DNA of 64,000 bases from Candidatus Latescibacterota bacterium (lineage in GTDB: Bacteria; Latescibacterota; UBA2968; UBA8231). Numbering within the stretch: the stretch's first letter is position 1; every line of letters starts with the position of its first letter. The notes beneath the pieces were generated by a model. The model ran no database searches and was not told where the DNA came from. It worked only from the letters and a program-made list of their open reading frames with translations. The translations under genes and the position numbers were made by a program. Shown here one piece after another: positions 14,248 to 34,407 of the stretch. The stretch spans positions 1,568,001 through 1,632,000 of the forward strand of contig CBDFJF010000001.1 of assembly GCA_965248265.1 (NCBI GenBank), read 5' to 3'.

Positions 14248-15629
14248 GCTATCGCTCTCCCTTGTTCGTCCATCTGCATGAGTGCATCGAGGACTGCCTT
14301 GCCCGTGTTCGGCGCCGTCACCGTCTTCTTCTTTGCCGGACGAGGCTTGTAGACGTGGTTTATGCCGTATCGCAACCCGTCGTAGGGGTGATCGTTCCCG
14401 CCCTTCAACACGTCCTCAGGATCGTGTGGGTCTCGCATCACAGTGCCCAAGCTCTCAAGCACATGTTCCGTCTTACCGCGGAAAAACTTGAGGCGGCCGG
14501 CGTAGAGCAGATCCTTGACGTTGCGAGCTCCGTTGACCCGCTCCATGTTGGCGCGAGTAAGGTGGATGCCCTGCTTGACGAAGCTGTCTACTGGAGCTGC
14601 CGCCTGGGTAGCCTCTCCTGGCTTGCGCTTCGTCCACATATCGTGAGGAGCCAGATGGAGCCGGCAACGGTCTTTGCGCAGACGGAAGTAGTTGTCGAGC
14701 ATCGCCAGGACACCGCGCGCATGATCGGCACCACCTGCATCTTCTCTGTAGTACTCGTCCACGACATAGACATTCCAGTCGGAGTCAACAGCGAGTAGCC
14801 CGCACCACGTCGCCATACTCTCGCCGTAATCCATGCAAGTGAAATGAGCCCAGCCCTCGGGAATCTCGAACGAGTCTTCCTCGACTTCAGAGCGCCGGAA
14901 CATGGAGAAGTAGGCCCCGACGATGGCATCCCAGTCACCCTCCAACCAGCCCTTGATCAGCTCAGGATCACCGACTCCCCTGAGCCTGTCGATGTAGCCG
15001 GGGTCCGCCTGGAGCCCTATGCGGTTATCCTTGACCTTGGAGGGGATGAACATGCGAGTGGTCTTGGTAGCGTCGTCTCTGATCAGGTGGTATCCGTATT
15101 TGTGGGTATTGATCTGGAAATACTCTTTGATCTCGGCGTGACAGCGACCACCAGGGTTACCAGTAGCGCGAATGCGCTTGTTGCGCGCAGGGCCTCTGAG
15201 GCGTGACTTCATGCGGTGGTAAGGCTTCATGGTCTCATGCAGAGGGAGTTCGTCCCAGCCAATCCAGGAATAGGAAAACCCCATGTACTTGGTGAAGTCA
15301 TTGATCGAGTCGAGGCTTCTGAGCCTGAGCACAGCCCCGTCAGGCCAACGCCAAGTCTTAGTGCCGACCTGATACTCAGCACCCATCTGAGGGAAGATTT
15401 GCAGCGCACACTCGATGATCTCTTCGAGCTCGGGGAACGACTGGCGGAACAGGATGCCAACCCAGTCTGAACCTTGATCGACGTCTGAAGCGAAGTCACC
15501 GAGAAGGAACTGCGTCTTGCCCCCGAAGACGGCGCCGCCGTAGAAGAGTTCGTCACAGAAGCTGGCCGTGGCACAGGCATCTGACTGAGGACCGGGCTGC
15601 GGACTCCAGCAGTAGCGGTCACTTTCCAT
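14244..15629 (-). CDS. terL: Terminase large subunit
   Basis: PQPGPQ, YGGAVFGGKT (Walker A), WIGWDE (Walker B), ATGNPGG, nuclease MDYG and DHPYDGLRY. Confidence 0.95.
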   Translation of the reverse strand: MESDRYCWSPQPGPQSDACATASFCDELFYGGAVFGGKTQFLLGDFASDVDQGSDWVGILFRQSFPELEEIIECALQIFPQMGAEYQVGTKTWRWPDGAVLRLRSLDSINDFTKYMGFSYSWIGWDELPLHETMKPYHRMKSRLRGPARNKRIRATGNPGGRCHAEIKEYFQINTHKYGYHLIRDDATKTTRMFIPSKVKDNRIGLQADPGYIDRLRGVGDPELIKGWLEGDWDAIVGAYFSMFRRSEVEEDSFEIPEGWAHFTCMDYGESMATWCGLLAVDSDWNVYVVDEYYREDAGGADHARGVLAMLDNYFRLRKDRCRLHLAPHDMWTKRKPGEATQAAAPVDSFVKQGIHLTRANMERVNGARNVKDLLYAGRLKFFRGKTEHVLESLGTVMRDPHDPEDVLKGGNDHPYDGLRYGINHVYKPRPAKKKTVTAPNTGKAVLDALMQMDEQGRAIA

Positions 15630-16221
15630 TGCTCCCGACTGCCGCCATCTCGCCGTAGACGTGACCCATCCGCTGCTCTATCCAGTCCTCGTAGGACTCA
15701 GGCCGCGGCGGGCTATCAACCTGCCGATGCTCAATGCTTCCCGATATCTCCACCTTCTGCCGATCCACGAACATGTTCAGATGCTTCGCGAGACTATCCA
15801 GTGCTGATATCTTGCTGTGGAGCTTGAAACGTGTCTTCTTCACCAATGGCGCATTCTCGCCGGCGCCGTCCACATACTCCTCTTGCACTATCTCTGAGAT
15901 TGCTCGAGTGGCCCCTTCCGACATTGCACTCCAGTCGAAATACACCATCCCGTTGTCTTCGAGGCGCAGGTAGTTGCTGATGTCGGCGAAAGCGATGGCG
16001 GCATACTCCTCAAGCACGCGATCGACGGTGATCTGGGTGCGTTCGGAGACCACGGCCCTGGCTTCGGCGATCGCAGCCGCTATTACTGGTTTGTGGAGGT
16101 TCTCCGTCCCGATTTTATGTGCCGTCCTCGGACTGTATCCGGCCCGCTTCGCCGCCTGGGTCGCGTTCAAATCGACGAGGTACTCCTCGACGAAACGCTG
16201 CTGTTTGGGGGTGAGCTTCAT
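15619..16221 (-). CDS. terS: Terminase small subunit
   Basis: LTPKQQRFVEEYLVDLNATQAAKRAGYS and KLHSKISALDSLAKHL motifs. Confidence 0.95.
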   Translation of the reverse strand: MKLTPKQQRFVEEYLVDLNATQAAKRAGYSPRTAHKIGTENLHKPVIAAAIAEARAVVSERTQITVDRVLEEYAAIAFADISNYLRLEDNGMVYFDWSAMSEGATRAISEIVQEEYVDGAGENAPLVKKTRFKLHSKISALDSLAKHLNMFVDRQKVEISGSIEHRQVDSPPRPESYEDWIEQRMGHVYGEMAAVGSNGK

Positions 16222-17332: not shown

Positions 17333-18103
17333 TTACTTCGCCGCCCACTCGAGTATGGACGCCGCCATACCCCCCAGAATCACACCGGCCGCCATGGTTC
17401 CGAAGTGCGGCGGCAGCAACGTCTGCAGCTGAGACAGTCGCGTGAAGGCGATTGACGGCTGCCATTGGACGACCCCGCCGTTGTAGCTCCAGTTGAGCCG
17501 GGTCCACATCGCCGAATACATGATCAGCGCCGTCAGGATGGCCGCGATGGGCCAGATTGCCGGCCCCATGTCCGGACGCCCGGGCAGCAGGAGCAGGGCC
17601 GAGCCGGATTGGGTGGCCAGATTGGTGAGGAGGAACCATTGGCGCATGAGGACGCCGTAGACGACGAACCAGACCGCCGACGACGAAGTGAAGGCGAAGG
17701 ACCAGTCGACGACGGAGCGGTCGAGGAGAAGCCAAGTGGCGGTAACGAACCAGGAGGTGGCCACCGCGGCAATACAGGAAGCGGCAGCGGCGAGCTTGGC
17801 GGCCGTGTTCTTGCGCTTGGTGCGATCATCGACGATCTCGGCGATGACGAGATCGTCCACCTTGCAGCGCAGGGCCTGGGCGATGTAGAACAGCGAGCCG
17901 AAGTCCGCCTGTTCCAGCGACGACCCCTCGTAGTGCAGGACCCGCGACAGGTTTTGCCGAGTCATATCGCAGCGCTCAGCCAGCTGGGCGTCAGATGGAA
18001 TTCCCAACTCCTCACGCCGCTGACGGACGTACTCCTTGTTCACACGCACGAGCCGTGCGCCTTTTTTCAGGGGCGATGCGCTTTTCTTCTTGTGCTTGGC
18101 CAT
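17333..18103 (-). CDS. Cro/C1 (XRE) HTH domain fused to a multi-pass membrane domain
   Basis: SDAQLAERCDMTRQNLSRV...IAQALRCKVDDL followed by about four hydrophobic helices. Confidence 0.75.
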   Translation of the reverse strand: MAKHKKKSASPLKKGARLVRVNKEYVRQRREELGIPSDAQLAERCDMTRQNLSRVLHYEGSSLEQADFGSLFYIAQALRCKVDDLVIAEIVDDRTKRKNTAAKLAAAASCIAAVATSWFVTATWLLLDRSVVDWSFAFTSSSAVWFVVYGVLMRQWFLLTNLATQSGSALLLLPGRPDMGPAIWPIAAILTALIMYSAMWTRLNWSYNGGVVQWQPSIAFTRLSQLQTLLPPHFGTMAAGVILGGMAASILEWAAK

Positions 18104-18202
18104 CTCACCGCGTATCGTATTGAATGTCCTCGTTAATGAGGACAAAGAAACAATGGGAGACGGGGGGTGTCAAGTACGAACAGCGGGGGGATTACCAACG
18201 AT

Positions 18203-19149: not shown

Positions 19150-19259
19150 AGGTCAGGCATAAAAAGCGGCTGGCCGGGGAATCTTTTAGCGGAGAATCCC
19201 AGCCAGCCAGTCACAATCACCTCACAGAGGGCCTTGGGGTCCTTAGGAAGGCGTTTGTA

Positions 19260-19580: not shown

Positions 19581-19608
19581 ACCGAAGACTCCCCAGAAGC
19601 GAGGACAA

Positions 19609-19767: not shown

Positions 19768-19780
19768 CAGGAGAAATGAA

Positions 19781-20047
19781 ATGCCAGACACAGAGATACT
19801 CGAACTCGTTAGAAACCGCACCCATGCGACGGGAGTCCCGCTCGCCATTCTGGAGGCACTCGACGCCCCGATAAAGAGGCGGACCGTCTACGACTATCGC
19901 GTCCATCTCGGACCGGACATCACTGAACTCGCCATAGAGAAACCCTTCGAGGTGAAAGCCCAAGCGGAAGAGTTTGCGGACCTGGTAGAAGAGTGCGGAT
20001 GGCGAACTCACATCGAGAGAGAAGAGTTGGAACGATGCACGGGCTGA
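19781..20047 (+). CDS. Hypothetical phage protein
   Basis: AGGAG SD; ORF in the early operon. Confidence 0.6.
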   Translation: MPDTEILELVRNRTHATGVPLAILEALDAPIKRRTVYDYRVHLGPDITELAIEKPFEVKAQAEEFADLVEECGWRTHIEREELERCTG

Positions 20048-20147
20048 GCCGAACTGGAAGAGTTGCCCTGGTTGTCGCAAGCAGCCTCAAAATGCTGGCG
20101 TTCGGGTACATCCTCGTCAGCGCATTCATCCCCTTCATCATGGAGAT

Positions 20148-22067: not shown

Positions 22068-22783
22068 CAATCCTGCGCGACGACGAGCAAGCCCAGGATC
22101 GCATCGAGCAGGCGCTGCTGCTGCACTATGGCCGGATGCTTGAAGACGGCTACGTCGACGATCTGCTCAAGCGTCTTGGCGGAATCGATCCAGGCGTAGT
22201 TGAGCAGGCACTCGACGAACACATCGGTGACACGTCGCCTGGCCACGGCAACCAGCCGATAGGGCATCATCCTCCTTCCGCCGCAAGACTACTGGCGCTG
22301 GTTGAGCGTCTGCAGCCAAAGCAATCCACCGACAAGGACTACCACCACGCTCAGCCGTCGGGGGAGAAGCGTCTTGTGGAGATCCCCGAGAACATGCGGC
22401 AGTACTTCCCCATCCGCGATGCGAAGAGGTTGCCAACCGGCCAATACAAGACGCACATCGAAGTCTACTCGTCGTACTGCCGGGACTGCTCCGACACCGG
22501 CATCGCTCGCTTCTTCCACTCCCGAGACCGCCGCCGCGTGTGGACCACCGAGGAGTTCTGGGAGTTGCCTGAGGCGATGAAGGATCAGCTGAACTCTGCC
22601 TCTGCTGTGTGTGATTGCAGTCGTGGCAGAAATGCTCCTGAAAGGGGGCGTTCGGTAGAGGTGTGGCACGAAGGCCGCCAGAGGCGCGTATCCACGTTCC
22701 CGCGCATGGAGCACATCCGTGAGATGGCCAAGCAGCGCATTGACGAAGACCTCGAGGTGGTGGGCAATGCAGACGCTTTCTGA
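22064..22783 (+). CDS. Putative replication accessory protein (helicase-loader-like position, Cys motifs)
   Basis: Coupled to the initiator; PPSAARL, CRDCSDTG and CDC motifs. Confidence 0.5.
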   Translation: MTILRDDEQAQDRIEQALLLHYGRMLEDGYVDDLLKRLGGIDPGVVEQALDEHIGDTSPGHGNQPIGHHPPSAARLLALVERLQPKQSTDKDYHHAQPSGEKRLVEIPENMRQYFPIRDAKRLPTGQYKTHIEVYSSYCRDCSDTGIARFFHSRDRRRVWTTEEFWELPEAMKDQLNSASAVCDCSRGRNAPERGRSVEVWHEGRQRRVSTFPRMEHIREMAKQRIDEDLEVVGNADAF

Positions 22784-22964
22784 GGGCCAACCTGTGTACT
22801 CACGCTCGCGGCCGTGGTTAAGAAACCTCGTCCTGGTTTACGGGCCGTACAGCGGCAACAGGTGGGCAGTGCAGGTAAACGGCGGCCTGTCGTGGGAGTT
22901 CGAGGGCAAAGACTTGATGCTGAAGCCAGTGAGGAAAATCAATTCCACCCAGAGGGGAACATGA
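22767..22964 (+). CDS. Small hypothetical protein
   Basis: GAGGTG SD; ATGA overlap with the next gene. Confidence 0.5.
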   Translation: MQTLSEGQPVYSRSRPWLRNLVLVYGPYSGNRWAVQVNGGLSWEFEGKDLMLKPVRKINSTQRGT

Positions 22965-23563
22965 CGATAGCGAGGTCGAGCATAGGCAGGAACGCATCAG
23001 CGCGTGTAATCCGGAAACCTGGTAAGGGGAGACAAGCAGAAGGACGTGCGGGCGAAGGGGCACCTGCCAAAAGGGGGAGGACACTTAGAACTCCTTTCGC
23101 TCGGCCTCGCATCGTGTCGGCGAGAAAGAAGCGCCGCTTTGAGGAGATGTCTCCGGAAGAGGCCAAGCAGTCGCGAGAAGGGTACATCGCCCTGTGTCTG
23201 GACATCATGCATAACGCCTTCAGCCTCGTTGAGCTGAAGTGGGAGACTCCGGAAAACCAGGAATACCAGGAGACCGTCACGTTCCTGCTCAATGACCAGT
23301 CGCCGGTTCATCAGATCCTGTTTGTCGAGCGGGAGTGTATCGAGCTCGCATTGGGGCGGATCTACAACGGCGAAGAAGTTGCCAACGGCCATGCCGGCCG
23401 CAAACGAAAGAAGGTTTCGGCAGAGCACCTCGATCGGATACTGCGAATGACGCACGGCGATCTGCAGGAAGCGGCCCAGATCCTTGGAGTGAGACCTTCT
23501 TCGATCAGGCGAATGGCTACCAGGCGCGGATTGAACCTCGATGCCTACAGAGGAGCCGCCTGA
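22961..23563 (+). CDS. Protein with C-terminal Fis-type HTH
   Basis: LRMTHGDLQEAAQILGVRPSSIRR. Confidence 0.6.
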   Translation: MTIARSSIGRNASARVIRKPGKGRQAEGRAGEGAPAKRGRTLRTPFARPRIVSARKKRRFEEMSPEEAKQSREGYIALCLDIMHNAFSLVELKWETPENQEYQETVTFLLNDQSPVHQILFVERECIELALGRIYNGEEVANGHAGRKRKKVSAEHLDRILRMTHGDLQEAAQILGVRPSSIRRMATRRGLNLDAYRGAA

Positions 23564-23564
23564 G

Positions 23565-23792
23565 ATGGACCAGGGCACTCTCATTCTCAAGGCCCTACAG
23601 CAAGGCCGGAAGCTGACACCGATGGATGCGCTGCAGGAGTTCGGGTGTTATCGCCTGGCGGCGCGCATCAACGAGCTACGGCGCGACCACGACATCAGCT
23701 CAACCATGCACACGAACCACAACGGCAAGCGGTACGCCATCTACGAGCTTGAGTTGGCCACCGATGAGAAGGGGCAAAGGGCGCTTCTATGA
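23565..23792 (+). CDS. Winged HTH phage protein
   Basis: LTPMDALQEFGCYRLAARINELR motif. Confidence 0.75.
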   Translation: MDQGTLILKALQQGRKLTPMDALQEFGCYRLAARINELRRDHDISSTMHTNHNGKRYAIYELELATDEKGQRALL

Positions 23793-24172
23793 CAACAGGC
23801 ACTTACGAGATTCCAGGCATCGGCAATCCAAAGAGGCCAAAGCATGAGGGCGCCTACGCCAGACGCTGCGCTACCAAGCAGTGCAAAGGGCTTCCGTTCA
23901 AGGCGGGGTACTGTGTCAACTGCGGGCCGACTGCGGCGATTATGAAGCTGCTCAAGGCGCTTGAGGCCGGTGCTGTGCTTCGAGCGCGGAAGGAGAAGAT
24001 CCGGACCTACGTAGTGCTGGAACCCCCTGATGGCGAGCCCCCGCAGTGCGTGAAGGAGGTCACACTGAAGGCCGCGGTGAAACGCAAGCTGCTGGTGAGC
24101 ATGGAGGGTTCGCCCGGACGCTATGGGTTCAGGTTGTCCAACAAGGCCACACAAATACTGGAGGCGAGGTGA
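23789..24172 (+). CDS. Hypothetical protein (Cys-rich N-terminus)
   Basis: Coupled ORF. Confidence 0.55.
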   Translation: MTTGTYEIPGIGNPKRPKHEGAYARRCATKQCKGLPFKAGYCVNCGPTAAIMKLLKALEAGAVLRARKEKIRTYVVLEPPDGEPPQCVKEVTLKAAVKRKLLVSMEGSPGRYGFRLSNKATQILEAR

Positions 24173-24173
24173 C

Positions 24174-24380
24174 ATGAAGAACTGGAGACGCGTCACGGCA
24201 AACAGCCTGCCGAAGTCTGGACGAGTAGTGCTCGCCTATCGCGCAGGACAGTACTTCCTGGCTTCAGTGCAGCGCAACGCCAAGGAGCAACTGAAGTGGT
24301 ACCCAGGCGGGTACGATCTCAAGAAGTTCGATTTCTGGATGCCACTACCACCAGAGCCAACGAAAGGAGCAAAGGAATGA
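24174..24380 (+). CDS. DUF551-like phage protein
   Basis: W...LP...VL...WMPLPPEP pattern. Confidence 0.7.
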   Translation: MKNWRRVTANSLPKSGRVVLAYRAGQYFLASVQRNAKEQLKWYPGGYDLKKFDFWMPLPPEPTKGAKE

Positions 24381-24922
24381 CTGCGCTACTGCAACTACCG
24401 ATCACCGAGGAACAGGAAGACGAGCTGTACTCCGAAGCTTTCGGAGACGCACTTTTTCACGGCGAAGGCGACGAGCTGCCGGAGCTGCCAACGTTCGAAG
24501 ATGAGGAGCAGGCGCAGCGATACCTGCGAGCCTACGCGCACTACCGGGAACAGTTCGACCAGGTGTCCGCACTCTTCGACGCCGAGATCGAGCGGATTGC
24601 AGCCCGACAGCAGAAGGAGCTGTCGAAGATCGAATGCCGGGTGGACTTCCTCTCGGCCTCGCTCAAGCGCTTCTACGAGGCGTCAGGAGCCAAGAGGGTT
24701 GTGCTGCCCCACGGCACTCTCTCCCAGCGCAAGCAGCCAGAGCGAGTCGTCATCGAGGACGAGACGACGTTCCTGGAGACGGCGCCGGCTGAGCTGATAA
24801 AGACGATGGCCGCCCCCGACAAAACGGCAATCAAGGAGCACATCAAAACCACCGGAGAGATTCCAACCGGTGTCGACCTGGTGCGCAACGATCCCAAGTT
24901 CACAATCACGCTGGCCGAATGA
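24377..24922 (+). CDS. Mu Gam-like / Gp157-like host-nuclease inhibitor
   Basis: Coiled coil, LPHGTLSQRK and PDKTAIK..GEIPTGV motifs. Confidence 0.75.
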   Translation: MTALLQLPITEEQEDELYSEAFGDALFHGEGDELPELPTFEDEEQAQRYLRAYAHYREQFDQVSALFDAEIERIAARQQKELSKIECRVDFLSASLKRFYEASGAKRVVLPHGTLSQRKQPERVVIEDETTFLETAPAELIKTMAAPDKTAIKEHIKTTGEIPTGVDLVRNDPKFTITLAE

Positions 24923-25203
24923 GAAGAGCAACCCGCAGAGAGAAGATCCGGATGTCGAAGATCGTTGACGACGGCTGCATCGTGTGTCGACGTGAGTTCG
25001 AGATCTACACCCCGGCGGGTGTGCACCATTGCACCCGTAGGCAGAAGCGGTCCCATGCGCGCACCATCGCGCTCTGCGACCGGCACCATCAGCACGGCGG
25101 AGAAGGCGTGGCGATTCACCCGTACTGGAAGCTGTTCGAAGAGAAGTTTGGGACAGAGGAGGAGTTGCTCGAGGCGACGAACCAGATGGTGGACTCACTA
25201 TAA
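24919..25203 (+). CDS. Ref-family HNH nuclease
   Basis: GCIVC, HH, TIALCDRHH, AIH and FEEKFGTEEELL motifs. Confidence 0.8.
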   Translation: MRRATRREKIRMSKIVDDGCIVCRREFEIYTPAGVHHCTRRQKRSHARTIALCDRHHQHGGEGVAIHPYWKLFEEKFGTEEELLEATNQMVDSL

Positions 25204-25248
25204 GAACCATTAAAACGCATTTACGCTGACGTAAACGAAGGAGGAGAA

Positions 25249-26175
25249 ATGGTACGAGAGTGCAAGACCCAAGAAGAACTCAGCGCGGCAATCGCGGAAA
25301 AGAAAAAGCACCCCGATATCGAAATCTGGCTTGTGGGCAATGCCCGATTTGAACTGGGCGGCTCCTCCCAGGTGAGAGCCTACGGCTCCTCCCAGGTGAC
25401 AGCCTACGGCTCCTCCCAGGTGACAGCCTACGACTCCTCCCAGGTGACAGCCTACGGCTCCTCCCAGGTGACAGCCTACGGCTCCTCCCAGGTGACAGCC
25501 TGCGGCTCCTCCCAGGTGACAGCCTGCGGCTCCTCCCAGGTGACAGCCTACGGCTCCTCCCAGGTGACAGCCTACGGCTCCTCCCAGGTGACAGCCTACG
25601 ACTCCTCCCAGGTGACAGCCTACGGCTCCTCCCAGGTGACAGCCTACGGCTCCTCCCAGGTGACAGCCTACGACTCCTCCCAGGTGACAGCCACTGATTG
25701 GGTCGGCGTCACCGTGCACCCCGGAGCCAAGGTCGAAGGCGGGAAGCAGATCGAGATACCGCGGCTGGATACACCGGCTCTATGGTGTGAGTTTTACGGG
25801 ATTCCTGTCGATGACGGGGTTGCAGTGATGTACAAAGCCGTCAACGACGATTTCGACAGCCCCTACGGGATGTCATACAAGCCTGGAACCGTCCCTGTGG
25901 CTCCGGATTGGGACGAAGGCAAAGCGGAATGTGGTGGCGGTATTCATGTGTCGCCGCGGCCCTTCATGGCGCTCGCATTCCACGGTGAGGCTACAAAGTT
26001 CGTCGGCTGCCCTGTGAAGCTGGAAGAGGTGGCGGTTCATCCCGATGGGCATTACCCGGAAAAGGTGAAAGCCAAGGGATGCTGCGCACCGGTGTTTGAA
26101 GTAGACATCGACGGGGAGCCGTTGCTGGGCATTCCCGATAACGGCAAAGCGTTGACTCACTACAACGCCGGTTAA
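25249..26175 (+). CDS. Phage protein with 14 octapeptide repeats (beta-solenoid-like) and C-terminal ECGGGIH domain
   Basis: (G/D)SSQVTA(Y/C) x14; strong GGAGG SD. Confidence 0.8.
   Translation: MVRECKTQEELSAAIAEKKKHPDIEIWLVGNARFELGGSSQVRAYGSSQVTAYGSSQVTAYDSSQVTAYGSSQVTAYGSSQVTACGSSQVTACGSSQVTAYGSSQVTAYGSSQVTAYDSSQVTAYGSSQVTAYGSSQVTAYDSSQVTATDWVGVTVHPGAKVEGGKQIEIPRLDTPALWCEFYGIPVDDGVAVMYKAVNDDFDSPYGMSYKPGTVPVAPDWDEGKAECGGGIHVSPRPFMALAFHGEATKFVGCPVKLEEVAVHPDGHYPEKVKAKGCCAPVFEVDIDGEPLLGIPDNGKALTHYNAG
25360..25695 (+). repeat. 14 x 24-bp coding tandem repeat GRCTCCTCCCAGGTGACAGCCTRC
   Basis: Counted directly in the DNA. Confidence 0.95.
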
Positions 26176-26181
26176 AATGAA

Positions 26182-26472
26182 TCAGCCGTGTGTTCCGCCA
26201 AGAAGCCCGTACAACCAGACTAAGACTCCTAATGCGAGCATGGCTGCCGGCCAGAGCAGGTTCGATCTCTCGCTTGCGAGCTCTCGGAATGTGGCATTCG
26301 TAAAGAAGAGGAAGCCGCTTATCGCGATCACAAATCCAGGGATGACGAAAAGAGACATGGCCCAGATGCTAAGGAGCAGCTCTCCAATCCCAACTGGCTC
26401 GTATCTCAAGAAATGACCTACACCGAGTACGAGAAGGACCGAGGCGATGCATGCAATCGCTGCAAGTTTCAT
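26182..26472 (-). CDS. Small 3-TM membrane protein, inverted relative to the early operon
   Basis: Hydrophobic 96-aa ORF between sites S2 and S3. Confidence 0.65.
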   Translation of the reverse strand: MKLAAIACIASVLLVLGVGHFLRYEPVGIGELLLSIWAMSLFVIPGFVIAISGFLFFTNATFRELASERSNLLWPAAMLALGVLVWLYGLLGGTHG

Positions 26473-26555
26473 GGATTACCTTAGCGCAGAGCTTAGATCG
26501 ATTGTGGATTGGACACCATAGACCAACGATAATGCCATTTAAAGGGAGTCAACGG

Positions 26556-26813
26556 ATGTACCTCGAAAGCACGGAAATCAGCGGAGAATTGTCGGTTGAG
26601 GAGTACCGCAACCAGATGGTGACAGCGCTTGAGCGTGATGTGCGGAGCATTGCCTACGCCATCACGGAAATACGCGACCTGTTCAAGTGCCCCGAATGCG
26701 ACGGCGCCGGAGGAGCGCGTATCACAGAAGAGCCGTCTGAGGACAACGACTTCGAGGGCTGGAGGTTCAAGGGTTGCGCCCGCTGTGACCGCAAGGGGAT
26801 TGTCCGCCCATGA
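26556..26813 (+). CDS. Hypothetical protein with CxxCxGxG zinc motifs
   Basis: CPECDGAG...CARCDRKG; SD supplied by site S3. Confidence 0.6.
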   Translation: MYLESTEISGELSVEEYRNQMVTALERDVRSIAYAITEIRDLFKCPECDGAGGARITEEPSEDNDFEGWRFKGCARCDRKGIVRP

Positions 26814-27277
26814 ACCGACAGAATGTGACCTGTGGCCCGCTTTACCGGCGTGTCCGCGAACTCTTCACCGGTGACGCCCCCGAACTCAATCGCGCCTTCG
26901 CGCAGGGATTCACGGCCGGCGAGGCTGAGAAAGTCTATCTCGGCGCCTGCAAGGCTGCCATGTTCCGCCCGACATCGTCGATTGGCCGCGAGCTGCTACG
27001 CTCCTGGGTATCAGACATTTGCGGCGTGTACGGGCTTTGCTGGACCACACTGGAGTATGTGGACCCGAGTCGTGATGGCGAGGCGGTATACGAGTTGTGG
27101 ATCTGTCGGGACAACGATGCCGTCGATGCCGTCGAGTCAACAACCGCCATCGAAGTCAACAGTCTCTCCTGGCATCACTGGCGGGGGCTGCTGACAGGTG
27201 TGGCTGATGGCGAAATCGACCTCCACTTCCACGAGCGCCAGAGCGCTGGAGACATCGACGGAACATTGGCGGACTAA
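26810..27277 (+). CDS. Hypothetical phage protein
   Basis: ATGA-coupled; stop lies inside site S4. Confidence 0.6.
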   Translation: MNRQNVTCGPLYRRVRELFTGDAPELNRAFAQGFTAGEAEKVYLGACKAAMFRPTSSIGRELLRSWVSDICGVYGLCWTTLEYVDPSRDGEAVYELWICRDNDAVDAVESTTAIEVNSLSWHHWRGLLTGVADGEIDLHFHERQSAGDIDGTLAD

Positions 27278-27306
27278 CGATAAGAAACCTACTGAGGAGT
27301 CAACGG

Positions 27307-27693
27307 ATGGGCGACGAATGGGAGAGAGCGAAGCCAACCGGGTGCCCTTTTCTGCGGTATCTCGACGCATACCCGATAGGCAACTGGGTTTCAAGGGGTG
27401 AGCCTCCATGCAGACAGAAGATTTGCGGGAAGGATAGTTGCTACCAGTACGGGCGCTCCTACAGAGACCGAGAGCGACTTCTGGTTCTCCCAGTTGGGAC
27501 GCTGATGTTCAAGCTCTCTCCAGAGCTGGGTGACGGACAAAGCAGCTCGATTGTGAAGAACATCGATCACGCCATCGAGGCGGTACGTGCGTGGATGGAG
27601 GACAGGAAGCACGGCGATGACATCGGCGAAGAATGCCAAATCGAGTGCGTGGAGATGACGGAAGCCGAGATTGCGGCTCTGCCTGAGCTATGA
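27307..27693 (+). CDS. Hypothetical phage protein
   Basis: SD supplied by site S4. Confidence 0.55.
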
Positions 27694-27971
27694 GAATCCG
27701 CCCGCTCTTTGCCTGGTACGACATCTGGATCGGAGCGTTCTGGGACAGGTCCAACCAGCGGCTCTACCTGTTCCCGTTGCCCATGATTGGGCTGAGGATT
27801 GATTTCAGAGGGGAGTCAACGATCATGGAGGACAACTGGGAAACGACGTGCCCAAACCGCGATGACGGTCAGCACTGCAACTGCTGGTATGATGGCGAGC
27901 CGTGCTGTGCCTGTGGCGATGACTGCGAAGAAGACAGGCAAGACGAAAATTGCTTTGCGGACGCACGATAA
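27690..27971 (+). CDS. Hypothetical protein, apparent fusion of two mini-genes
   Basis: Hydrophobic [13 protein letters not shown] part plus Cys-rich part, joined over a GGGAGTCAACG half-site; stop lies inside site S5. Confidence 0.55.
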
Positions 27972-28005
27972 TTCCGATTACTGGGAGTCAATCGAACGAG
28001 AGGAC

Positions 28006-28212
28006 ATGAAATCTTGCTACCTCCATTTCAGGGGGACGGCACAGCCCCCACTTGAGATCAGCGCGACGGACGCTGCCACGATCATCAGATGCAACTATGC
28101 CTCGGTGGAAGCCGTTGAGCTGATGGAGGAGCGGCTTCGCGAAGGCAAGCGAGTGTATGTCGAGAGCGGGCACATCCGCCTGCATAGCTTCACACTCATT
28201 CACAGCAATTGA
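28006..28212 (+). CDS. Hypothetical protein, paralog of 31168..31356
   Basis: LHFRG...ATDAATIIRCNYAS...MEERLREGKRVYV. Confidence 0.65.
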   Translation: MKSCYLHFRGTAQPPLEISATDAATIIRCNYASVEAVELMEERLREGKRVYVESGHIRLHSFTLIHSN

Positions 28213-28221
28213 GGAGATCCT

Positions 28222-28419
28222 ATGAGCGGGAATAGCAAGGAGCGGCGCAGGCTCAATCGCCTGACGAACGGGCTTCTTCCGAGACTCAATGAGTTGGAGG
28301 AGGAGGTGGAGTATCTACGGGAGGACACAGCGTATCTCGAAAGGGGTATTCACCAGTTCTCAGCTGGGGGTTGGTCTGTATTTTGGCGATGGCTCTGGAG
28401 TGGCTTCTCCTGGAAGTGA
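28222..28419 (+). CDS. Hypothetical coiled-coil protein
   Basis: GAGGAG SD. Confidence 0.55.
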   Translation: MSGNSKERRRLNRLTNGLLPRLNELEEEVEYLREDTAYLERGIHQFSAGGWSVFWRWLWSGFSWK

Positions 28420-29201
28420 GCTGCGCGAGTTGTGGCGATCGAGGTTTCGTGTATGTCCAGGCTGATGAGCGAGTGGGACAAGGCCACGGCCAATTGGAGA
28501 TCTGCCGGTGTGTTCGTCCTTTGTGCCGTTGCGGAGACCAGTCTCCCTACCTCTACTGGGATGAGGAGTCCGTGCGCCGCGACTGCCCCTGTAGAGCGCC
28601 TCGGCACCGGATACAGGTAGTGAACCACCTGGTCAAGATCTCGGGAGTGCCCGACCGCTATCGCTGGAAGTTCCGCACGGACTTCCTCGACGCCGAGCAG
28701 CCAGGACTGGCCGGCAAGATCCGGGCCTCGATCGCGAAGCTTGTGGACTCCCAGGAGCCGCCGAAGCAGGGCCTGTTCCTGCATGGCACACCAGGCACCG
28801 GCAAGACGCTGTTGGCCAGCATCGTGCTCAATGAGCTGATGTACTGGAGGATGAAGCGGGGTCGGTTCGTGAACCTGGCTCGATCGCTGTTTCCTCGACT
28901 TCGGCAGACAATGTCAGAGGGGTCTCAGGAGAGCGGGAAGCTCTTCCAGATCCAGGAGCGGTTGGCCACAGTCCCCTACCTGGTGATCGACGATCTGGGG
29001 GTGCAGCGCGGGACCGAGTGGGAGGAGGAGATCCTGTACGACCTGGTCGATGCGCGGTATGCGGAGCAGCAATTCACGGTAGTTACGACGAACACGCCTC
29101 TCGATGAGATCGAAGGGATCTCGCGAGGGCGGATCTACTCACGGCTCAAGGAGATGTGCCGATGGTTGAAATTGGAAGGGACGGACTGGAGATGCGAATA
29201 G
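28416..29201 (+). CDS. DnaC/IstB-like ATPase (helicase loader)
   Basis: GTPGTGKT, LVIDDLG, VTTN and RIYSRLKEM motifs; Cys-rich N-terminus. Confidence 0.85.
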   Translation: MSCASCGDRGFVYVQADERVGQGHGQLEICRCVRPLCRCGDQSPYLYWDEESVRRDCPCRAPRHRIQVVNHLVKISGVPDRYRWKFRTDFLDAEQPGLAGKIRASIAKLVDSQEPPKQGLFLHGTPGTGKTLLASIVLNELMYWRMKRGRFVNLARSLFPRLRQTMSEGSQESGKLFQIQERLATVPYLVIDDLGVQRGTEWEEEILYDLVDARYAEQQFTVVTTNTPLDEIEGISRGRIYSRLKEMCRWLKLEGTDWRCE

Positions 29202-29434
29202 CAGAACCGTCCGATCGGGGCCGTGTGGTAGCGGTCGTAATCCCCCGCTACCTCGAAGCATGGGCACTTTTGAATCCGTTGTCGAGCATGAAGACATGGA
29301 CGATAACATGCGGTAGGTGTTCCCACTCTTGGCGAGAAAAAGTCCCGCTTGTCAGGGTCTGTTCGGCTGTGTGCCCGTGCTGCAGGACGCAGAACCGATG
29401 GGAACTTATCCTTGAGGAAGACTCGGAGGCTTGA
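29192..29434 (+). CDS. Small zinc-ribbon protein
   Basis: CGRC...CPCC. Confidence 0.5.
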   Translation: MRIAEPSDRGRVVAVVIPRYLEAWALLNPLSSMKTWTITCGRCSHSWREKVPLVRVCSAVCPCCRTQNRWELILEEDSEA

Positions 29435-30267
29435 TCTCTTGCTGAGTGAGTCCTTCGAAGTACTCTGCACTGTTATCAGACTCGTCTACTATCATCACGT
29501 TCACCTCGGCCCTATCTGGCGAGACGATCAGGTAAGCCTGTCCGTGAGTTACTGGATCTGCCGCCCCGGTCTGTTTGGTACAGACACACTCCTGAGCGCG
29601 CCTCTTATTGCTGAGTGGGGCCAGGATGCGGTAGCAAACTGCTGGCGTCGGCCATGTGGGGAAAAGATTCCAAGCTGCAAATTCATCCGCGTGCAGATTC
29701 GCAGACAGACTCGCCCAAGTCCCAAAAGGTTCGGGGTGATTAGTGTCGCTGTCCAAGAAACCATCCACATATTTCATGAAAAAACGGTGTCTGCGCGCGG
29801 CTTCAGCATCAACTTTCTCGCTAAGCTCCTTCTGGGATCTCCGCTTTGCGCGAAGGTCTACCATCGTTCCCGCGACATTTTCATGGACGTCTTCTGCGCG
29901 CCTGGCTTTGTCCAACCACCCCTGTGCTTGGTCAAGAAGATCTGCACTGATGAGTGTCTTCGCCAGGTTAGACATTGCCAGCGTATTTCCAGCGTTGGCC
30001 GCCTTTTCGTAGTGCCCTATGGCGAGAGATTCCAGTCCGATCTTGTCGCAGCAGACACCCAAATTATTGATCGCCAGGTCGTAGTCGGGCCGAAAACTCA
30101 AACATTTCGTGTAGTGAAGCCGGCTGACCTCCGATTGGCCCGCGCGATAATAGGCAAAGGCTGAGGCAAAGCGAATGTCTACATCGTTCGGTGTAATCTC
30201 TAGGATCTTCTCAAGAATAAGCGCCAGAGCGCCGGAGATCTGGACGGTAACCTTGAAACCGTTGAGT
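29406..30267 (-). pseudogene. 5'-truncated TPR/Sel1-repeat protein gene, inverted
   Basis: TPR-like frame (LEKILEITPNDVDIRFASAFAY..., AINNLGVC, AMSNLA) continues upstream of 30101 with no start codon until a stop at ~30268. Confidence 0.6.
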
Positions 30268-30307
30268 CACTGTAATGCCTCAAAACGATAGTCAAAAGGT
30301 GCCAACC

Positions 30308-30550
30308 ATGGATAAAAAAAAGATGCCGTATCAGGCCCTCGTCTTTCCTGAGTTTGGGGACGGAGAATTTGCAATCCAAACAGGGCGGCGACTCGGGATG
30401 GTCAAATCGGATTACACCGACGACTGGTATATCTCATGGTCGCCTCGCAATTCAAATAACAACGCCGAGGGGGTGTGGTCAGAGTGGGTTGAGTTGGCGA
30501 ATGCAATCATTGCTGAGGATGAACGCCGCAAGGCGGATACTACCAAATAA
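30308..30550 (+). CDS. Hypothetical protein between sites S6 and S7
   Basis: Stop TAA is the end of the S7 left arm. Confidence 0.6.
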   Translation: MDKKKMPYQALVFPEFGDGEFAIQTGRRLGMVKSDYTDDWYISWSPRNSNNNAEGVWSEWVELANAIIAEDERRKADTTK

Positions 30551-30572
30551 TGCCTCTTATCGGGAGTAAGAA

Positions 30573-30725
30573 ATGTATTTCAGTTTAGAGTTTATTCAGT
30601 GCGACGGCTGCGGAGAAAGAGTAGAGGAAATGGGGGAATTGAAGTTCGGAGAAGTGCCGGATGATTGGCTCAAGGTAAGCGAACGAGAACATCACTGCCC
30701 CGAGTGTAAAACAGAGACTGACTAA
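30573..30725 (+). CDS. 50-aa zinc-ribbon protein between sites S7 and S8
   Basis: Manually read MYFSLEFIQCDGCG...HHCPECKTETD; SD from S7, stop in S8. Confidence 0.6.
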   Translation: MYFSLEFIQCDGCGERVEEMGELKFGEVPDDWLKVSEREHHCPECKTETD

Positions 30726-30754
30726 CGATAATCCTCGTACTACGGAGTAGATGA

Positions 30755-31171
30755 ATGAGTGAACTGCCCTACGCTGAGGACGTGAACTACTGGAAGACAG
30801 GATCGTCGTCCCCGGACTCATGGATCGCGAAGGCGATAAAGCAGATCGAGGACGTGGGCGGCGAGATCACGGCAGAGGGCTTTGGTCGCGCGGCTGGACA
30901 CTCGGCCTACATGCTGGGCTTTGTGTTCGACCAGGAGGCGTTCAAGATCACCTGGCCTGTACTGGAGTCGCACAAGGGCGAGGAAATGGCCGCGCGCCGG
31001 CAGGCGGCGACGTTTCTCTATCACGACGTGAAGGCACGGTGCATGGTGGTGAAGATCAAAACGCCGAGGGTGGCGTTTTTCGAGTACCTGCAGCTGCCAG
31101 ACGGCCGGTCCGCTGGGCAGCTGGCAAACCCCGAGCTGTTGGCCAATGTGCCGAAGATGCTGACAACATGA
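30755..31171 (+). CDS. Conserved-looking hypothetical phage protein
   Basis: SD supplied by S8; RRQAA..LYHDVKAR and AFFEYL.LPDGR patterns. Confidence 0.65.
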   Translation: MSELPYAEDVNYWKTGSSSPDSWIAKAIKQIEDVGGEITAEGFGRAAGHSAYMLGFVFDQEAFKITWPVLESHKGEEMAARRQAATFLYHDVKARCMVVKIKTPRVAFFEYLQLPDGRSAGQLANPELLANVPKMLTT

Positions 31172-31356
31172 ACTACATCCTCCACTTCAAGGGGCCACCG
31201 CAGCCGGCAGAGCAGGTCAACGCCACTGACGCGGCCAAGATCATCCGCAGCAACTTCGCCTCCAGGGAGGAGATCAAGGTGATGGAGGAGCGACTACAGG
31301 CAGGAAAACGAGTCTACGTCCGCAACGGGTATTTGCGGCGTGGGGATCTGAACTGA
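31168..31356 (+). CDS. Hypothetical protein, paralog of 28006..28212
   Basis: LHFKG...ATDAAKIIRSNFAS...MEERLQAGKRVYV. Confidence 0.65.
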   Translation: MNYILHFKGPPQPAEQVNATDAAKIIRSNFASREEIKVMEERLQAGKRVYVRNGYLRRGDLN

Positions 31357-31368
31357 AAGGAGGAGCAC

Positions 31369-31539
31369 ATGCCCAAGTATCACACCACAAAGCAAGTTGC
31401 CGACATGCTCGAGGTGACCGATCGGTACGTTCGGAAGATGGTGATCGAGAAGAAGCTGACTGCGTTCAGGCTCGGCCACCGGGTGCGCATACCTACCGAA
31501 GCAGTTGAGAAATTCATGCGAGAGCGCAAGATCGCATGA
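31369..31539 (+). CDS. xis: Excisionase (HTH_17/MerR-like)
   Basis: Manually read MPKYHTTKQVADMLEVTDRYVRKMV...AFRLGHRVRIP; AGGAGG SD; overlaps the integrase start. Confidence 0.85.
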   Translation: MPKYHTTKQVADMLEVTDRYVRKMVIEKKLTAFRLGHRVRIPTEAVEKFMRERKIA

Positions 31540-32696
31540 AAGGGAGCATAACCCGGCGCCAACTCAAGGGCGGCCTGCAGTACTACATCGTCTACGACGC
31601 TGGCCGGAAGTGGTCGTCGAAAAAGCAGAAAACCGTTCGTAATCAGCAATGGGAGCGTGTCGAGCCAAACACTCGGACGGCTGCACAGAAGCTGCTCAAC
31701 ATCCGCCTGGCGGAAGTCCAACGGGGCGAATGGCAGGGTAAGCAGAGCATCGGTTTCACCGAGCTCACCCAGTCATGGATGGAGAAGGACGCACGGCCGC
31801 GACTCAAGCCACAATCGCTGGACCGCTACCAACAATTCCTCCGGCTGCACATCCTGCCCGTCCTCGGCCAGTACCAGGCGCACGAGATTGACCTTGAGAT
31901 TCTACAGGGGTTTACTGCGGTGTTGCTACAGGAGCTCTCGGTGTCTCACGTCAAATCAATCGTGGCTGTCACGAGAGCCATCCTGCGCAAGGGGTACGAA
32001 TGGGGATACGTCAAAGCCAACCCGGCTGACATGCGCATTTCCTACCCGCGTCACACGCCGAAGAAGATCGATCCGCTGACTCCCGAGGAAATCCACGCTC
32101 TGCTGGCCCAAGCGTCCCAGAAGTGGTGTGCAGTCCTCGTAGTGGCGATCTGGACCGGTTTGCGCGTGGGCGAGATCCAGGCCATGAAGTGGAACAATCT
32201 TGATTGGAAGGCTTCGGAGTACTATGTGGAGGAGAACCTGACTCGACGGCGGGGGTTCGGAGATCCCAAGACGCCGTCAGCAGCCTCCTCGGTGCTTCTG
32301 TCGCCCTTCGTCATCGATACCCTGCGACAGCACAAACAGCGTCAGGCAGCGCTCAAACTGGCTCAGGGAAGTGATTACAAGGACGCAGGATTTATCTTCA
32401 CAACCGATCAGGGCGGGCCCTATGGCTACAATCAGATCACCAAATGGGGCCTGGAACGCACGCTCGAAGACGCCGGTCTGCGCCGCATCACATTCCACCA
32501 GCTACGCCACACCTGTGCCTCGCTGCTGATCTCCAAAGGAGCCAACATCAAGTCAGTGCAGAGGCAGCTGCGGCACGCCACCATCAAGCAGACGCTCGAT
32601 ACCTACGCCCATCTGTACCCGGACGATCACGCCGAAGCGGTACGGGCAATGGACAGCTATGTATGGGGGAAGGCCGCTCAGCTAACAAATATCTAA
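31536..32696 (+). CDS. int: Tyrosine recombinase, prophage integrase
   Basis: TGLRVGEI, PKT, FHQLRHT and RH...TLDTYAH catalytic motifs; N-terminal arm-binding-type domain. Confidence 0.95.
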   Translation: MKGSITRRQLKGGLQYYIVYDAGRKWSSKKQKTVRNQQWERVEPNTRTAAQKLLNIRLAEVQRGEWQGKQSIGFTELTQSWMEKDARPRLKPQSLDRYQQFLRLHILPVLGQYQAHEIDLEILQGFTAVLLQELSVSHVKSIVAVTRAILRKGYEWGYVKANPADMRISYPRHTPKKIDPLTPEEIHALLAQASQKWCAVLVVAIWTGLRVGEIQAMKWNNLDWKASEYYVEENLTRRRGFGDPKTPSAASSVLLSPFVIDTLRQHKQRQAALKLAQGSDYKDAGFIFTTDQGGPYGYNQITKWGLERTLEDAGLRRITFHQLRHTCASLLISKGANIKSVQRQLRHATIKQTLDTYAHLYPDDHAEAVRAMDSYVWGKAAQLTNI

Positions 32697-32831
32697 CAAG
32701 TTCCGCAAAACGACTACCTGTTCATACCAACAGAGGAACAGGCGACATGAAAACCTCAGAGAGAAATGTCACAGGTTCCGCAATCATACGCTCTATTCAT
32801 ACCCCGACAGTAGGTCCGTTTCTGTCTCATC

Positions 32832-32860
32832 TTGACTGTCTCCTAGGCTCCATGTACACT
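32832..32860 (+). promoter_or_regulatory. Host sigma70-type promoter
   Basis: TTGACT-N17-TACACT, 40 nt upstream of the ATG at 32901. Confidence 0.6.
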
Positions 32861-32900
32861 CGCGCACTAGAAATCTATACCACTCAAGGAGAGGACTCCA

Positions 32901-33599
32901 ATGCGCGTACTAGTGACCGGCTCGGCCGGCAACATCGGACAACACCTGATAACCCACCTCAAGGACAAGCACGAGTTCCGCGGCCTGGACGTGAATCCCA
33001 CAGCCCAGCTCGACGACTACGTGGTCGCCAACGTCAACGACTGGGAGGCCGTCAACCATGCCTCCACAGACATGGATGCGACCATCCACTTGAGCAACTG
33101 TGGTGGGCAGTGGGAGCAGGCACTGCAGTCGATGATCGGTACCCGCCACGTGTTTGAGGCGGCCTTGGAGCACGGGGGCAAGCGCATCGTCTTCGCCAGC
33201 CGTGGCGGCGTCCATCCATCAGCCGTCATTCCGCGCAGCGTCACCCGCACGGCCGACCTGCTGACCCACCCTGACAGTTACTACACCATCACCAAGGTCT
33301 TCGGGGAAGCCATGGGCGACATGTTCTCGTCCAAGCACGGATTCGGCGTCGTCTCGGTCCGTATCGGCAACTTCAACAAGGACCGGCCGGAGCCGGAACA
33401 CCCCCATCAGTTGGGTCACGACGACTGCGTTCGGCTCTTCGATGCGGCGTTGACGGCCAAAGACATCGGCCACGAGCGCGTGTTCGGCGTCTCGGACAGC
33501 AACTGGCCCTTGTATGACATCGAACACGGCCGCAAGGCCATCGGCTACGATCCGCAGCAACGCTCTGAGGTCGCTCAGGACGTCATCGACGCCGGCTAG
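32901..33599 (+). CDS. NAD-dependent epimerase/dehydratase (uronate dehydrogenase-like)
   Basis: VTGSAGNIG, YTITKVFGE and VRIG motifs. Confidence 0.85.
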   Translation: MRVLVTGSAGNIGQHLITHLKDKHEFRGLDVNPTAQLDDYVVANVNDWEAVNHASTDMDATIHLSNCGGQWEQALQSMIGTRHVFEAALEHGGKRIVFASRGGVHPSAVIPRSVTRTADLLTHPDSYYTITKVFGEAMGDMFSSKHGFGVVSVRIGNFNKDRPEPEHPHQLGHDDCVRLFDAALTAKDIGHERVFGVSDSNWPLYDIEHGRKAIGYDPQQRSEVAQDVIDAG

Positions 33600-33654
33600 A
33601 CCTGAAGCACCCCCGCATCATGGAGGCGGCGCGCATCGATTACAAGCGCGTCGC

Positions 33655-34407
33655 CTACTTCCCCTGGTCCTTCCTCCACTGGTCGTATTCCGGACGCGCC
33701 TCTTCCGACAGAGGATAGTACCTGGACAGGTGTCCACCTGCCAGTAGTCTCTCGCGCGAGAACTCCTCCCACTCTGCATGAGTCGTGGCCGTTTCTATCA
33801 ACTCTGGAGCCATTTGAACCGGCACCACCACGACACCATCGTCGTCGGCAACGATGATATCGCCTGGCATCACGAGTGTGTCATTGCATGCGATCGGCAC
33901 GTTCACGGCGTGCGGATAGATGTCAGTCTGGGTATGAAAGTTGGGCGTCACGCCGCGCAGCCACAGACCCAGGTCGAGATCGGCCATGACAATCGGGTAG
34001 TCGCGGATGCAGCCGTCAATGACAACACCTACTCCTCCACGTCCCTGGAAGAACGTCAGCATCATGTTGCCGAAAATGCCGCTCTTCATCGATCCTCTGG
34101 CGTCGACGACGACGACATCACCCGGTTGGGTGTGGTACAGCACGTGGCGGTGCAGCTGCCTTTCCGGATCGGCGTACTCGTCCTCCTCGTAAACATCCTC
34201 GCGCTGCGGCAGACAGTGCAGTGTCAACGCGGGCCCCGCAACACACTTCCCCGGTGAATGGGCGACTGGACCCAGGATGTACGGGTCCTGGATGCCGAGG
34301 CGCTTGAGCTCACCTGCCGCTGTGGCACTGCCGATCTCCCTCAACTGCTCGACAAGCTCCTTCGGTGGACGCCCGATATCCGGTGTATCTGTTTGACCAT
34401 CATTCAT
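33655..34407 (-). CDS. RraA/HMG aldolase family protein
   Basis: AGPALT, DGCIRD and PGDIIVADDDGVVVVP motifs. Confidence 0.85.
   Translation of the reverse strand: MNDGQTDTPDIGRPPKELVEQLREIGSATAAGELKRLGIQDPYILGPVAHSPGKCVAGPALTLHCLPQREDVYEEDEYADPERQLHRHVLYHTQPGDVVVVDARGSMKSGIFGNMMLTFFQGRGGVGVVIDGCIRDYPIVMADLDLGLWLRGVTPNFHTQTDIYPHAVNVPIACNDTLVMPGDIIVADDDGVVVVPVQMAPELIETATTHAEWEEFSRERLLAGGHLSRYYPLSEEARPEYDQWRKDQGK

Follow-up and report, generated by a model that had tools for sequence, protein, structure and literature searches.

Did a small gene enter the early operon of a prophage as a single unit, by insertion into one copy of a repeated element, and if so by which route? The question is raised by a locus of a Candidatus Latescibacterota bacterium (contig CBDFJF010000001.1, positions 1,568,001 to 1,632,000), analysed here over the whole 64-kb stretch, hereafter the window, which comprises a prophage and the adjoining chromosome. 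In it, an 80-aa gene that we call g80 stands between two copies, S6 and S7, of an element that recurs at gene boundaries, and these two copies have the same six bases at their centre. A sequence-only reading of this DNA had taken the arrangement for the footprint of a single-cassette integration by tyrosine recombination, and had proposed that the unit of about 275 bp may still be excisable. Our analysis supports this interpretation in part: the g80 locus resembles the scar of an old gene insertion, and not a demonstrably working excisable cassette.

Eight copies of a mirror-symmetric element at gene boundaries

A repeat search gave a family of six copies, which was brought to eight by the addition of S7 and of a site at 25192. 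The members are named A to H, S6 being site F and S7 site G (Table 1). All eight are on the plus strand, between 25.2 and 30.8 kb, at gene boundaries in the early operon. A 35-nt matrix trained on three sites only (26521, 27272 and 27960) was used to score 127,932 positions on both strands of the window. Sites H, B, A and F came out at ranks 4, 5, 6 and 8, and all five untrained sites fell in the top 9 on at least one of the two strands. In leave-one-out scoring S7 ranked 24th (z score 3.8), and S6, which the sequence-only reading needed to stand above background, does so (8th, z score 4.9). No member-like score was obtained elsewhere in the window, nor in 128,595 bases of other loci.

The element consists, as had been proposed, of two inverted arms (12-16 nt) around a central hexamer, and measures about 40 bp. 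Pooling the half-sites yields the consensus GTTGACTCaC-n-ATAA, in which the outer GACTC is conserved as well as the inner ATAA/TTA; the consensus of the right arm is GGGAGTCAAC. The forward matrix also matches four sites on the reverse strand, namely S6 at rank 7, S7 at rank 9, C and B, which puts the dyad axis at the midpoint of the hexamer (between positions 15 and 16). Within sites, the two arms are complementary at 51 of 96 positions, compared to a window mean of 3.08 out of 12. Across sites, left arms set against reversed right arms gave 9.0 matches out of 18, versus 4.39 +/- 1.78 for random 18-mers, and 53.9% of the cells of the alignment paired in register, versus 29-38% when the partner was slid. 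Column shuffles paired equally well (57.0 +/- 2.2), and covariation was 0.087, versus 0.122 in shuffles. The symmetry sits in the consensus, not in covariation, and because it is not a matter of compensating changes, the reader of the element is most likely a dimeric DNA-binding protein.

We also considered whether gene ends and gene starts carry two separate motifs. This was rejected: the top 12 half-site matches in the window, where members score by construction, all belong to the eight sites, without any strong half standing alone. A lone motif resembling the right arm, GGGGAGTCAACG, was noticed at 27810-27827, inside the open reading frame (ORF) 27690..27971 and 5 nt before an in-frame ATG at 27825. 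The real gene may be shorter than the 93-aa ORF annotated there, with something else in front of it.

S6 and S7 look like the two halves of one site

The arms of S6 and S7 were then scored with a matrix built on the other six sites. The two arms that point away from g80 are strong: the left arm of S6 scores 10.8 and the right arm of S7 scores 11.5, values equalled or exceeded by 8.6e-5 and 9.4e-5 of the window positions, respectively. The two arms that face the gene are poor, with a score of 1.8 for the right arm of S6 (0.65% of positions as high), and of -10.8 for the left arm of S7 (16% of positions as high, which is background). Added together, the S6 left arm and the S7 right arm reach 22.2, inside the 20.8-31.0 range of the six other sites under leave-one-out, whereas the reciprocal combination of S7 left and S6 right, which is the donor site implied by a site-specific integration, yields -9.1, a background value. 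That the gene-facing arms are poor and the outward arms make together one normal site fits an insertion into a single site, and is the strongest point in its favour. This part of the sequence-only reading, the footprint of an insertion, is the part that finds support.

Nine shared bases bracket the gene

The sequence TAATGCCTC occurs exactly twice in the 64 kb, at 30273-30281 and 30548-30556, so that S6 and S7 do flank ORF 30308..30550 (80 codons) with the same centre TGCCTC. Its two copies bracket this ORF and delimit a unit of 275 bp. The TAA of the first copy ends a 23-codon remnant (30204-30275), and that of the second is the stop codon of the bracketed ORF itself. With one mismatch allowed, 5 matches were found in the window, versus 8.95 +/- 2.96 expected.

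A 9-mer repeated 50-400 nt apart is unremarkable by itself: the window contains 162 such pairs (one tandem array excluded), versus 94 +/- 9 in resampled sequence. The interest of this one lies in the position of both copies within the site family. The centres of the six other sites (GAACCA, CGCCGG, TGCCAT, GAAACC, TTCCGA and TCCTCG, all distinct, in agreement with the sequence-only reading) leave S6 and S7 as the only matched pair among the eight. When sites were simulated from the column composition of the family, identical hexamers were obtained in 8.6% of cases for any pair and in 2.2% for a neighbouring pair. The identity is moderately unlikely by chance, which is suggestive and not decisive.

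Several families of insertion sequences duplicate 9 bp of their target. The direct repeat flanking the insert being exactly of this length, it could be the duplicated target of a small non-autonomous element mobilised by a transposase. Yet no terminal inverted repeats could be read at the two ends of the 275-bp unit, the ORFs scanned included no transposase, and no second copy of the unit is present in the window. We consider such an origin very improbable.

The elements overlap stop and start signals

The elements are also superimposed on translation signals. Positions 10-12 read TAA in seven of the eight sites, and in six of the eight this triplet lies in the reading frame of the upstream gene, at its end. 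At A, E, F and G it is the working stop codon; at D and H it is a second in-frame stop that follows GAC TAA. At site C the TAA closes no plus strand gene, and site B has CAA in its place, the gene stop being in the right inner arm. The right arm contains GGAG, the Shine-Dalgarno sequence of the downstream gene, at C, D, E, G and H; in S7 it is GGGAG at 30562-30566, and the gene that it serves begins at 30573. The ATG comes 22-23 nt after the TAA at sites C, D, G and H, versus 32-34 nt at sites E and F. In S6 (30275-30310) and in site C (26532-26558), not in S7, the ATG of an overlapping TAATG is in frame with the downstream gene. Translation could alternatively begin at this stop-start overlap, which would lengthen g80 (to 91 aa) as well as the gene at 26556.

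With a stop codon in its 5′ arm, a Shine-Dalgarno sequence in its 3′ arm and every copy in the sense orientation, the element might act as RNA, the stop-codon arm pairing with the Shine-Dalgarno arm and coupling downstream translation to upstream termination. S6 would agree with this, as nothing is translated upstream of it and it has no internal GGAG, another ribosome-binding site, AAGGTG, being used. Folding argues otherwise: the energies of the eight sites are -3 to -11 kcal/mol, with z scores of -1.96 to +1.13 relative to shuffles, none of the sites folds better than these, and no Rfam family matches the element. The pairing and covariation values given above, no better than in column shuffles, point the same way. 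A role as RNA hairpin was therefore rejected, the fold energies resembling those of shuffles and covariation being absent, and translational coupling of this kind appears improbable.

A promoter role was rejected as well. Four promoter-like matches were found in 18000-33000 (4.4 expected), none of them on a site, and the TTGACT of the left arm is followed by a -10-like hexamer in one site only, at a spacing of 15 nt.

Insertion by short homology, or no insertion at all

We infer an insertion, most likely by way of short homology and not of a dedicated recombinase. In this proposal, to which we attach a probability of about 0.45, the 275-bp unit was inserted into one junction element by an exchange between elements, in a manner resembling the mini-circles formed by the PeSL cassettes of T4-type phages. 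As described by Arbiol et al. (2010, PMC2839356), PeSL are stop-to-start repeats which flank single small ORFs and recombine into mini-circles, as shown experimentally, and recombination between copies is given there as the explanation of insertions and deletions. In the prophage, junction elements of 30-40 bp would be long and alike enough to serve as crossover points, and the operon itself encodes annealing and end-protection proteins, its recombination functions being an AAA_24/Sak4-like protein, a Gam-like protein and a Ref-like nuclease. An exchange between two elements would generate a circle of one gene carrying a hybrid element. Re-entry of this circle at another element would then leave hybrid elements on both sides, with the crossover stretch common to both. 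The expected outcome would be that S6 keeps the left arm of the resident site and S7 its right arm, with the crossover segment TAATGCCTC present twice, once on each side.

A number of observations weigh against this proposal, and most of them could be accounted for if no discrete event had occurred, S6 and S7 being ordinary, partly decayed members of the family, with a common centre due to coincidence or to descent within a TAATGCC sub-family. First, the right arm of S6, which is in the top 0.65% of positions, keeps AGTCAA in register, and the left arm of S7, by eye, is like the left arm of C minus two bases. Because these weak halves are not wholly foreign, decay in place of two complete sites is possible. 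Second, sites A and H likewise have one weak arm, without any partner. Third, the composition of the 275-bp unit is not distinct (50% G+C, versus 52% in the upstream flank and 47% in the next gene). Fourth, site C (26521) already has TAATGCC like S6 and S7, so that these two may be close kin; the chance of hexamer identity, 2.2% or 8.6% depending on the pairs allowed, and the frequency of exact 9-mers at such spacing also leave room for coincidence. Fifth, no close prophage relative turned up in phage records or in a genome scan (see below) that would allow a comparison with and without the unit. Finally, PeSL as defined in the same article (PMC2839356) comprise a strong sigma-70 promoter and a stable stem-loop terminator, and the element described here has neither a sigma-70 promoter nor a stable stem-loop. 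Two facts speak against the absence of an event: the weak arms are exactly the two facing the gene, and the two strong arms make one canonical site. In addition, the gene family occurs in many unrelated sequences and has therefore travelled, and other mosaic borders in the operon coincide with sites. We see the absence of any discrete event as a serious possibility, if a doubtful one.

Is a tyrosine recombinase involved?

The route favoured by the sequence-only reading was that of a tyrosine recombinase, for which S6 and S7 would be core sites: a circle of 275 bp would have integrated across the 6-nt overlap, duplicating it, and the unit would still be excisable. Much of the layout agrees with this. 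The sites have two inverted arms, a centre of 6 nt and a dyad axis at that centre; S6 and S7 are the sole pair with the same centre; the split-site pattern fits an integration; and a tyrosine integrase is encoded on the same strand, 1 kb further downstream. There is also a formal parallel in the dif sites of Acinetobacter plasmids, of 11-6-11 structure, described as flanking gene modules (PMC6449649).

The enzyme and the sites themselves point elsewhere. The integrase is of a generic phage type (match to phrog_1, E 6.8e-68), has an excisionase as partner, and stands at the end of the prophage with candidate arm-type repeats of its own. It remains far under the cut-offs of the XerC (57.9 bits, cut-off 335), XerD (54.3 bits, cut-off 329.6) and integron-integrase models (TIGR02249, 38.1 bits for a cut-off of 265; NF011946, 24.5 for 435), only some 60 C-terminal residues matching the latter. 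A scan of 65 distinct ORFs revealed no second recombinase. With the left arm of S7 at background and an implied donor site at -9.1, a synapsis of S6 with S7 would be deprived of two of the four arms that a recombinase needs, and excisability at the present day, put forward as a possibility in the sequence-only reading, finds no support. Furthermore, the centres of the six other sites are all unmatched, and all of them are superimposed on a stop codon and a ribosome-binding site, something that a pure recombination site does not require. Tyrosine recombination, the part of the earlier interpretation that finds no support, is therefore rated low, given the generic integrase and the background score of the donor site; we judge it unlikely.

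In a wider form of the same idea, all eight elements would be the recombination sites of a prophage cassette system, a counterpart of integron or dif-module arrays, on which the adjacent integrase or a host Xer protein would act across the 6-nt centre, inserting and removing small genes one by one, the sites giving also the stop and start signals by which each cassette is fitted into the operon. S6 and S7 would then mark the latest insertion, and be the only pair matched for excision. This too strikes us as improbable.

Just past the integrase stop codon, two copies of CA[A/G]GTTCCGCAA were noticed at 32697-32708 and 32772-32783, 75 nt apart (3 matches, versus 1.4 expected, at one mismatch), and a short dyad at 32806-32826 (GACAGTA, 7 nt, TTCTGTC). 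The prophage attachment site may lie here, with the repeats and the dyad as candidates for its arm-type and core sites. The repeats have the appearance expected of arm-type sites of a lambda-like integrase, and bear no resemblance to the junction element.

The bracketed gene and its neighbours

The gene g80 is real. A word-based protein search had found only the protein itself, as if it were an orphan; this was overturned by a full HMMER search, in which 157 relatives were obtained at E<=1e-3, 31 of them at E<=1e-10. Free-standing proteins of 65-90 aa are numerous among them, and in some relatives the region forms a domain of a longer protein. Nine columns are invariant in an alignment of 23 sequences, which displays the motif SPRN..NAEG.W.EWV. 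The structure model is confident (predicted local distance difference test, pLDDT, 81.6) and has three strands and a long C-terminal helix. The protein matches no Pfam, PHROG or NCBIfam family, and a fold search returned no match (best E 0.9 in PDB and 0.19 in BFVD). As members of the family occur in many unrelated sequences, on their own or within longer proteins, g80 is a gene that has travelled widely and horizontally. A weak pairwise match to the product of the 128-aa gene of the same operon was also found (27% over 70 aa, E 0.003).

On the upstream side, the TPR-like gene is followed by the remnant and then by S6. The remnant is 86% identical over 28 nt to the 155-aa gene, and 65% identical at the protein level over 17 aa (E 7e-4). 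The region of the opposite-strand TPR-like gene has apparently replaced the rest, with only this piece staying behind. Further similarities extend across the locus, as genes 28006..28212 and 31168..31356 are paralogous (58% identical over 53 aa, E 3e-24; 70% over 151 nt). To judge by these matches, the operon carries two versions of one duplicated or mosaic module, each with one of the two paralogues at its end: the first is made of the 155-aa gene, site D, two genes, site E and a 68-aa gene, and the second of the remnant, S6, g80, S7, g50, site H, a 138-aa gene and a 62-aa gene.

Base composition changes along the same borders. The segment from B to C has 52% G+C between flanks of 59-61%, and from about 29.3 kb to site H the value is 47-53%, then 61% directly after H. 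The neighbourhood is mosaic, with joints at sites. The B-C segment contains, at 26182..26472 on the minus strand, the gene of a 96-aa hydrophobic protein, apparently membrane-spanning by eye, and looks like a moron-type insertion.

Table 1. Coordinates of the junction elements, of g80 and of other features of the window. Starts follow the 30-nt numbering of the element.
Feature	Coordinates	Strand	Start	Remarks
Site A	25192..25223	+	25192	left arm strong, right arm weak; at the stop of the Ref-like nuclease gene
Site B	26154..26185	+	26154	within the final codons of the 308-aa repeat protein gene; delimits a low-G+C segment on the left
Site C	26521..26552	+	26521	right border of the B-C low-G+C segment; has TAATGCC
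Site D	27272..27303	+	27272	stop of the 155-aa gene and Shine-Dalgarno sequence of the 128-aa gene
Site E	27960..27991	+	27960	where the 93-aa ORF stops, ahead of the 68-aa gene
S6 (site F)	30260..30297	+	30264	TAA 30273-30275 closes the remnant; centre TGCCTC 30276-30281; left arm strong, right arm weak
S7 (site G)	30535..30572	+	30539	TAA 30548-30550 stops the 80-codon gene; centre TGCCTC 30551-30556; left arm background, right arm strong
Site H	30720..30751	+	30720	left arm identical to that of site D; right arm weak; G+C passes from 47% to 61% here
g80, 80-aa gene	30308..30550	+		content of the 275-bp unit; conserved small-protein family, motif SPRN..NAEG.W.EWV
g50, 50-aa zinc-ribbon-like gene	30573..30725	+		downstream of S7, ends in the left arm of site H
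23-codon remnant	30204..30275	+		lacks a start codon; homologue of the 3′ end of gene 26810..27277 (155 aa); ends in the S6 left arm
TPR-like gene	29406..30101	-		interrupts the plus strand operon; in a low-G+C island with S6, g80, S7 and g50
Small terminase subunit gene	15619..16221	-		beside further unannotated leftward ORFs crossing the left window edge
Cro/C1-type repressor candidate	17333..18145	-		helix-turn-helix protein
Excisionase gene	31369..31539			precedes the integrase gene, same operon
Tyrosine integrase of the prophage	31536..32696	+		only recombinase found in the window; at the prophage end

The prophage and its early operon

The rightward early operon starts at about 19.26 kb and closes with the excisionase and tyrosine integrase genes, the S6-g80-S7 locus being within its final 2.5 kb. 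Among its products are an AAA_24/Sak4-like protein, a replication initiator, helix-turn-helix proteins (genes 22814..23563 and 23541..23792), a Mu Gam-like protein, the Ref-like nuclease and a DnaC-like loader. The integrase marks one end of the prophage; the opposite end lies beyond the window. Metabolic genes are found from 32.9 kb onward (epimerase, RraA-like, aminotransferase, nitrile hydratase and others). Inside the prophage, a tRNA-Met gene (16226-16300, minus strand) adjoins the gene of the small terminase subunit. A tandem array at 25359-25692 (13.9 copies of a 24-nt unit, 97% matches) encodes the eight-residue repeat GSSQVTAY inside a 308-aa early gene (25249..26175), whose product matches phrog_15773 and, weakly, DUF7666.

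Search for relatives

Positions 26001-34000 were compared by blastn to 50,697 phage records, and 14 records were hit, each over about 1% of the query (pieces of the integrase or of the DnaC-like gene). A tblastn search of the phage collection with the 80-aa and 138-aa proteins found nothing. Genome contigs were scanned with an alignment of the 138-aa neighbour, the homologues of which are mostly from metagenome-assembled genomes of Chloroflexota; one of its homologues, 70% identical, is on a contig of 11.9 kb. This returned 11 loci, at 39-57% identity, in which no other gene of the window, no upstream junction motif and, over 128,595 bases, no matrix match of at least 15 was found. On the chromosomal side, because the CocE/NonD-type hydrolase (46080-48125) has a 96%-identical homologue on a public contig of 1.28 Mb, a closely related genome exists. 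Its closest relatives from named organisms are at most 68% identical and are spread over several phyla.

Comparison with known systems

Phage early regions are rich in small genes whose coming and going is poorly understood. Here, a repeated mirror-symmetric element on gene boundaries marks the borders of foreign-looking segments, and was once apparently split by a travelling gene. Should the element be a recombination target, for short homology or for an enzyme, a temperate phage would be able to shuffle its accessory genes singly, with translation kept. Four systems invite comparison.

Integron cassettes are single promoterless genes, each with a recombination site, and a circle, once integrated, is flanked by hybrid sites. 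The prophage array has likewise single genes each with a following site and, if the insertion reading holds, hybrid sites flanking the insert. It differs by its integrase, which fails the integron-integrase models, is co-directional with the array, comes after an excisionase gene and is placed at the prophage end. It differs also by its sites: attC sites are longer, imperfect palindromes recognised as folded single strands, whereas those described here are of 30-40 bp and give no fold or covariation signal.

A dif-type site is described as two 11-bp arms around a 6-bp centre, the inner parts of the arms being palindromic and most conserved, and the 28-bp pdif sites of Acinetobacter plasmids, on which XerC and XerD of the host act, as bracketing small gene modules (PMC6449649). 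Several copies, inverted arms around 6 bp and the bracketing of small gene modules are found in the prophage as well. Here, in contrast, the outer GACTC is conserved like the inner ATAA/TTA, the arms extend to about 16 nt, the window encodes no Xer protein, and the sites double as translation signals. The sites that flank dif modules are in alternating or opposite orientation, whereas all eight of the prophage have the same one.

With PeSL the likeness is one of layout. The arrangement running from the upstream stop to the downstream Shine-Dalgarno sequence and start, repeated among small accessory genes, is present here, and a single ORF is bracketed by two copies. Apart from the promoter and stem-loop already discussed, the differences are that the element of the prophage is a consensus palindrome with a fixed 6-nt centre, and that it belongs to a temperate prophage.

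Closest in form are the start-associated repeats, SAS and ESAS, of Cluster K mycobacteriophages (Pope et al. 2011, PMC3203893; PMC12699233). In these descriptions, SAS is a repeat with a ribosome-binding site a few bases before the start codon, in one orientation and in the non-structural region only; ESAS consists of imperfect 17-bp inverted repeats around a short spacer, the left repeat being better conserved, and both articles give the function of these repeats as unknown. The prophage sites are similarly all eight on the plus strand, confined to the early operon, associated with ribosome-binding sites, and built of inverted half-sites of 16-18 nt around 6 nt. The resemblance is one of form, not of sequence: the right-arm consensus GGGAGTCAAC is unrelated to the 13-bp SAS, from which it departs by more than the 2 mismatches allowed. 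The inverted repeat overlaps here the ribosome-binding site and the upstream stop codon, whereas in SAS/ESAS it lies upstream; the spacer is fixed at 6 nt, and the intergenic gaps are of 22-45 nt, versus more than 50 bp. If the element is a regulatory site only, it would be an independent example of start-associated repeats like those of the mycobacteriophages, in an unrelated, uncultured host.

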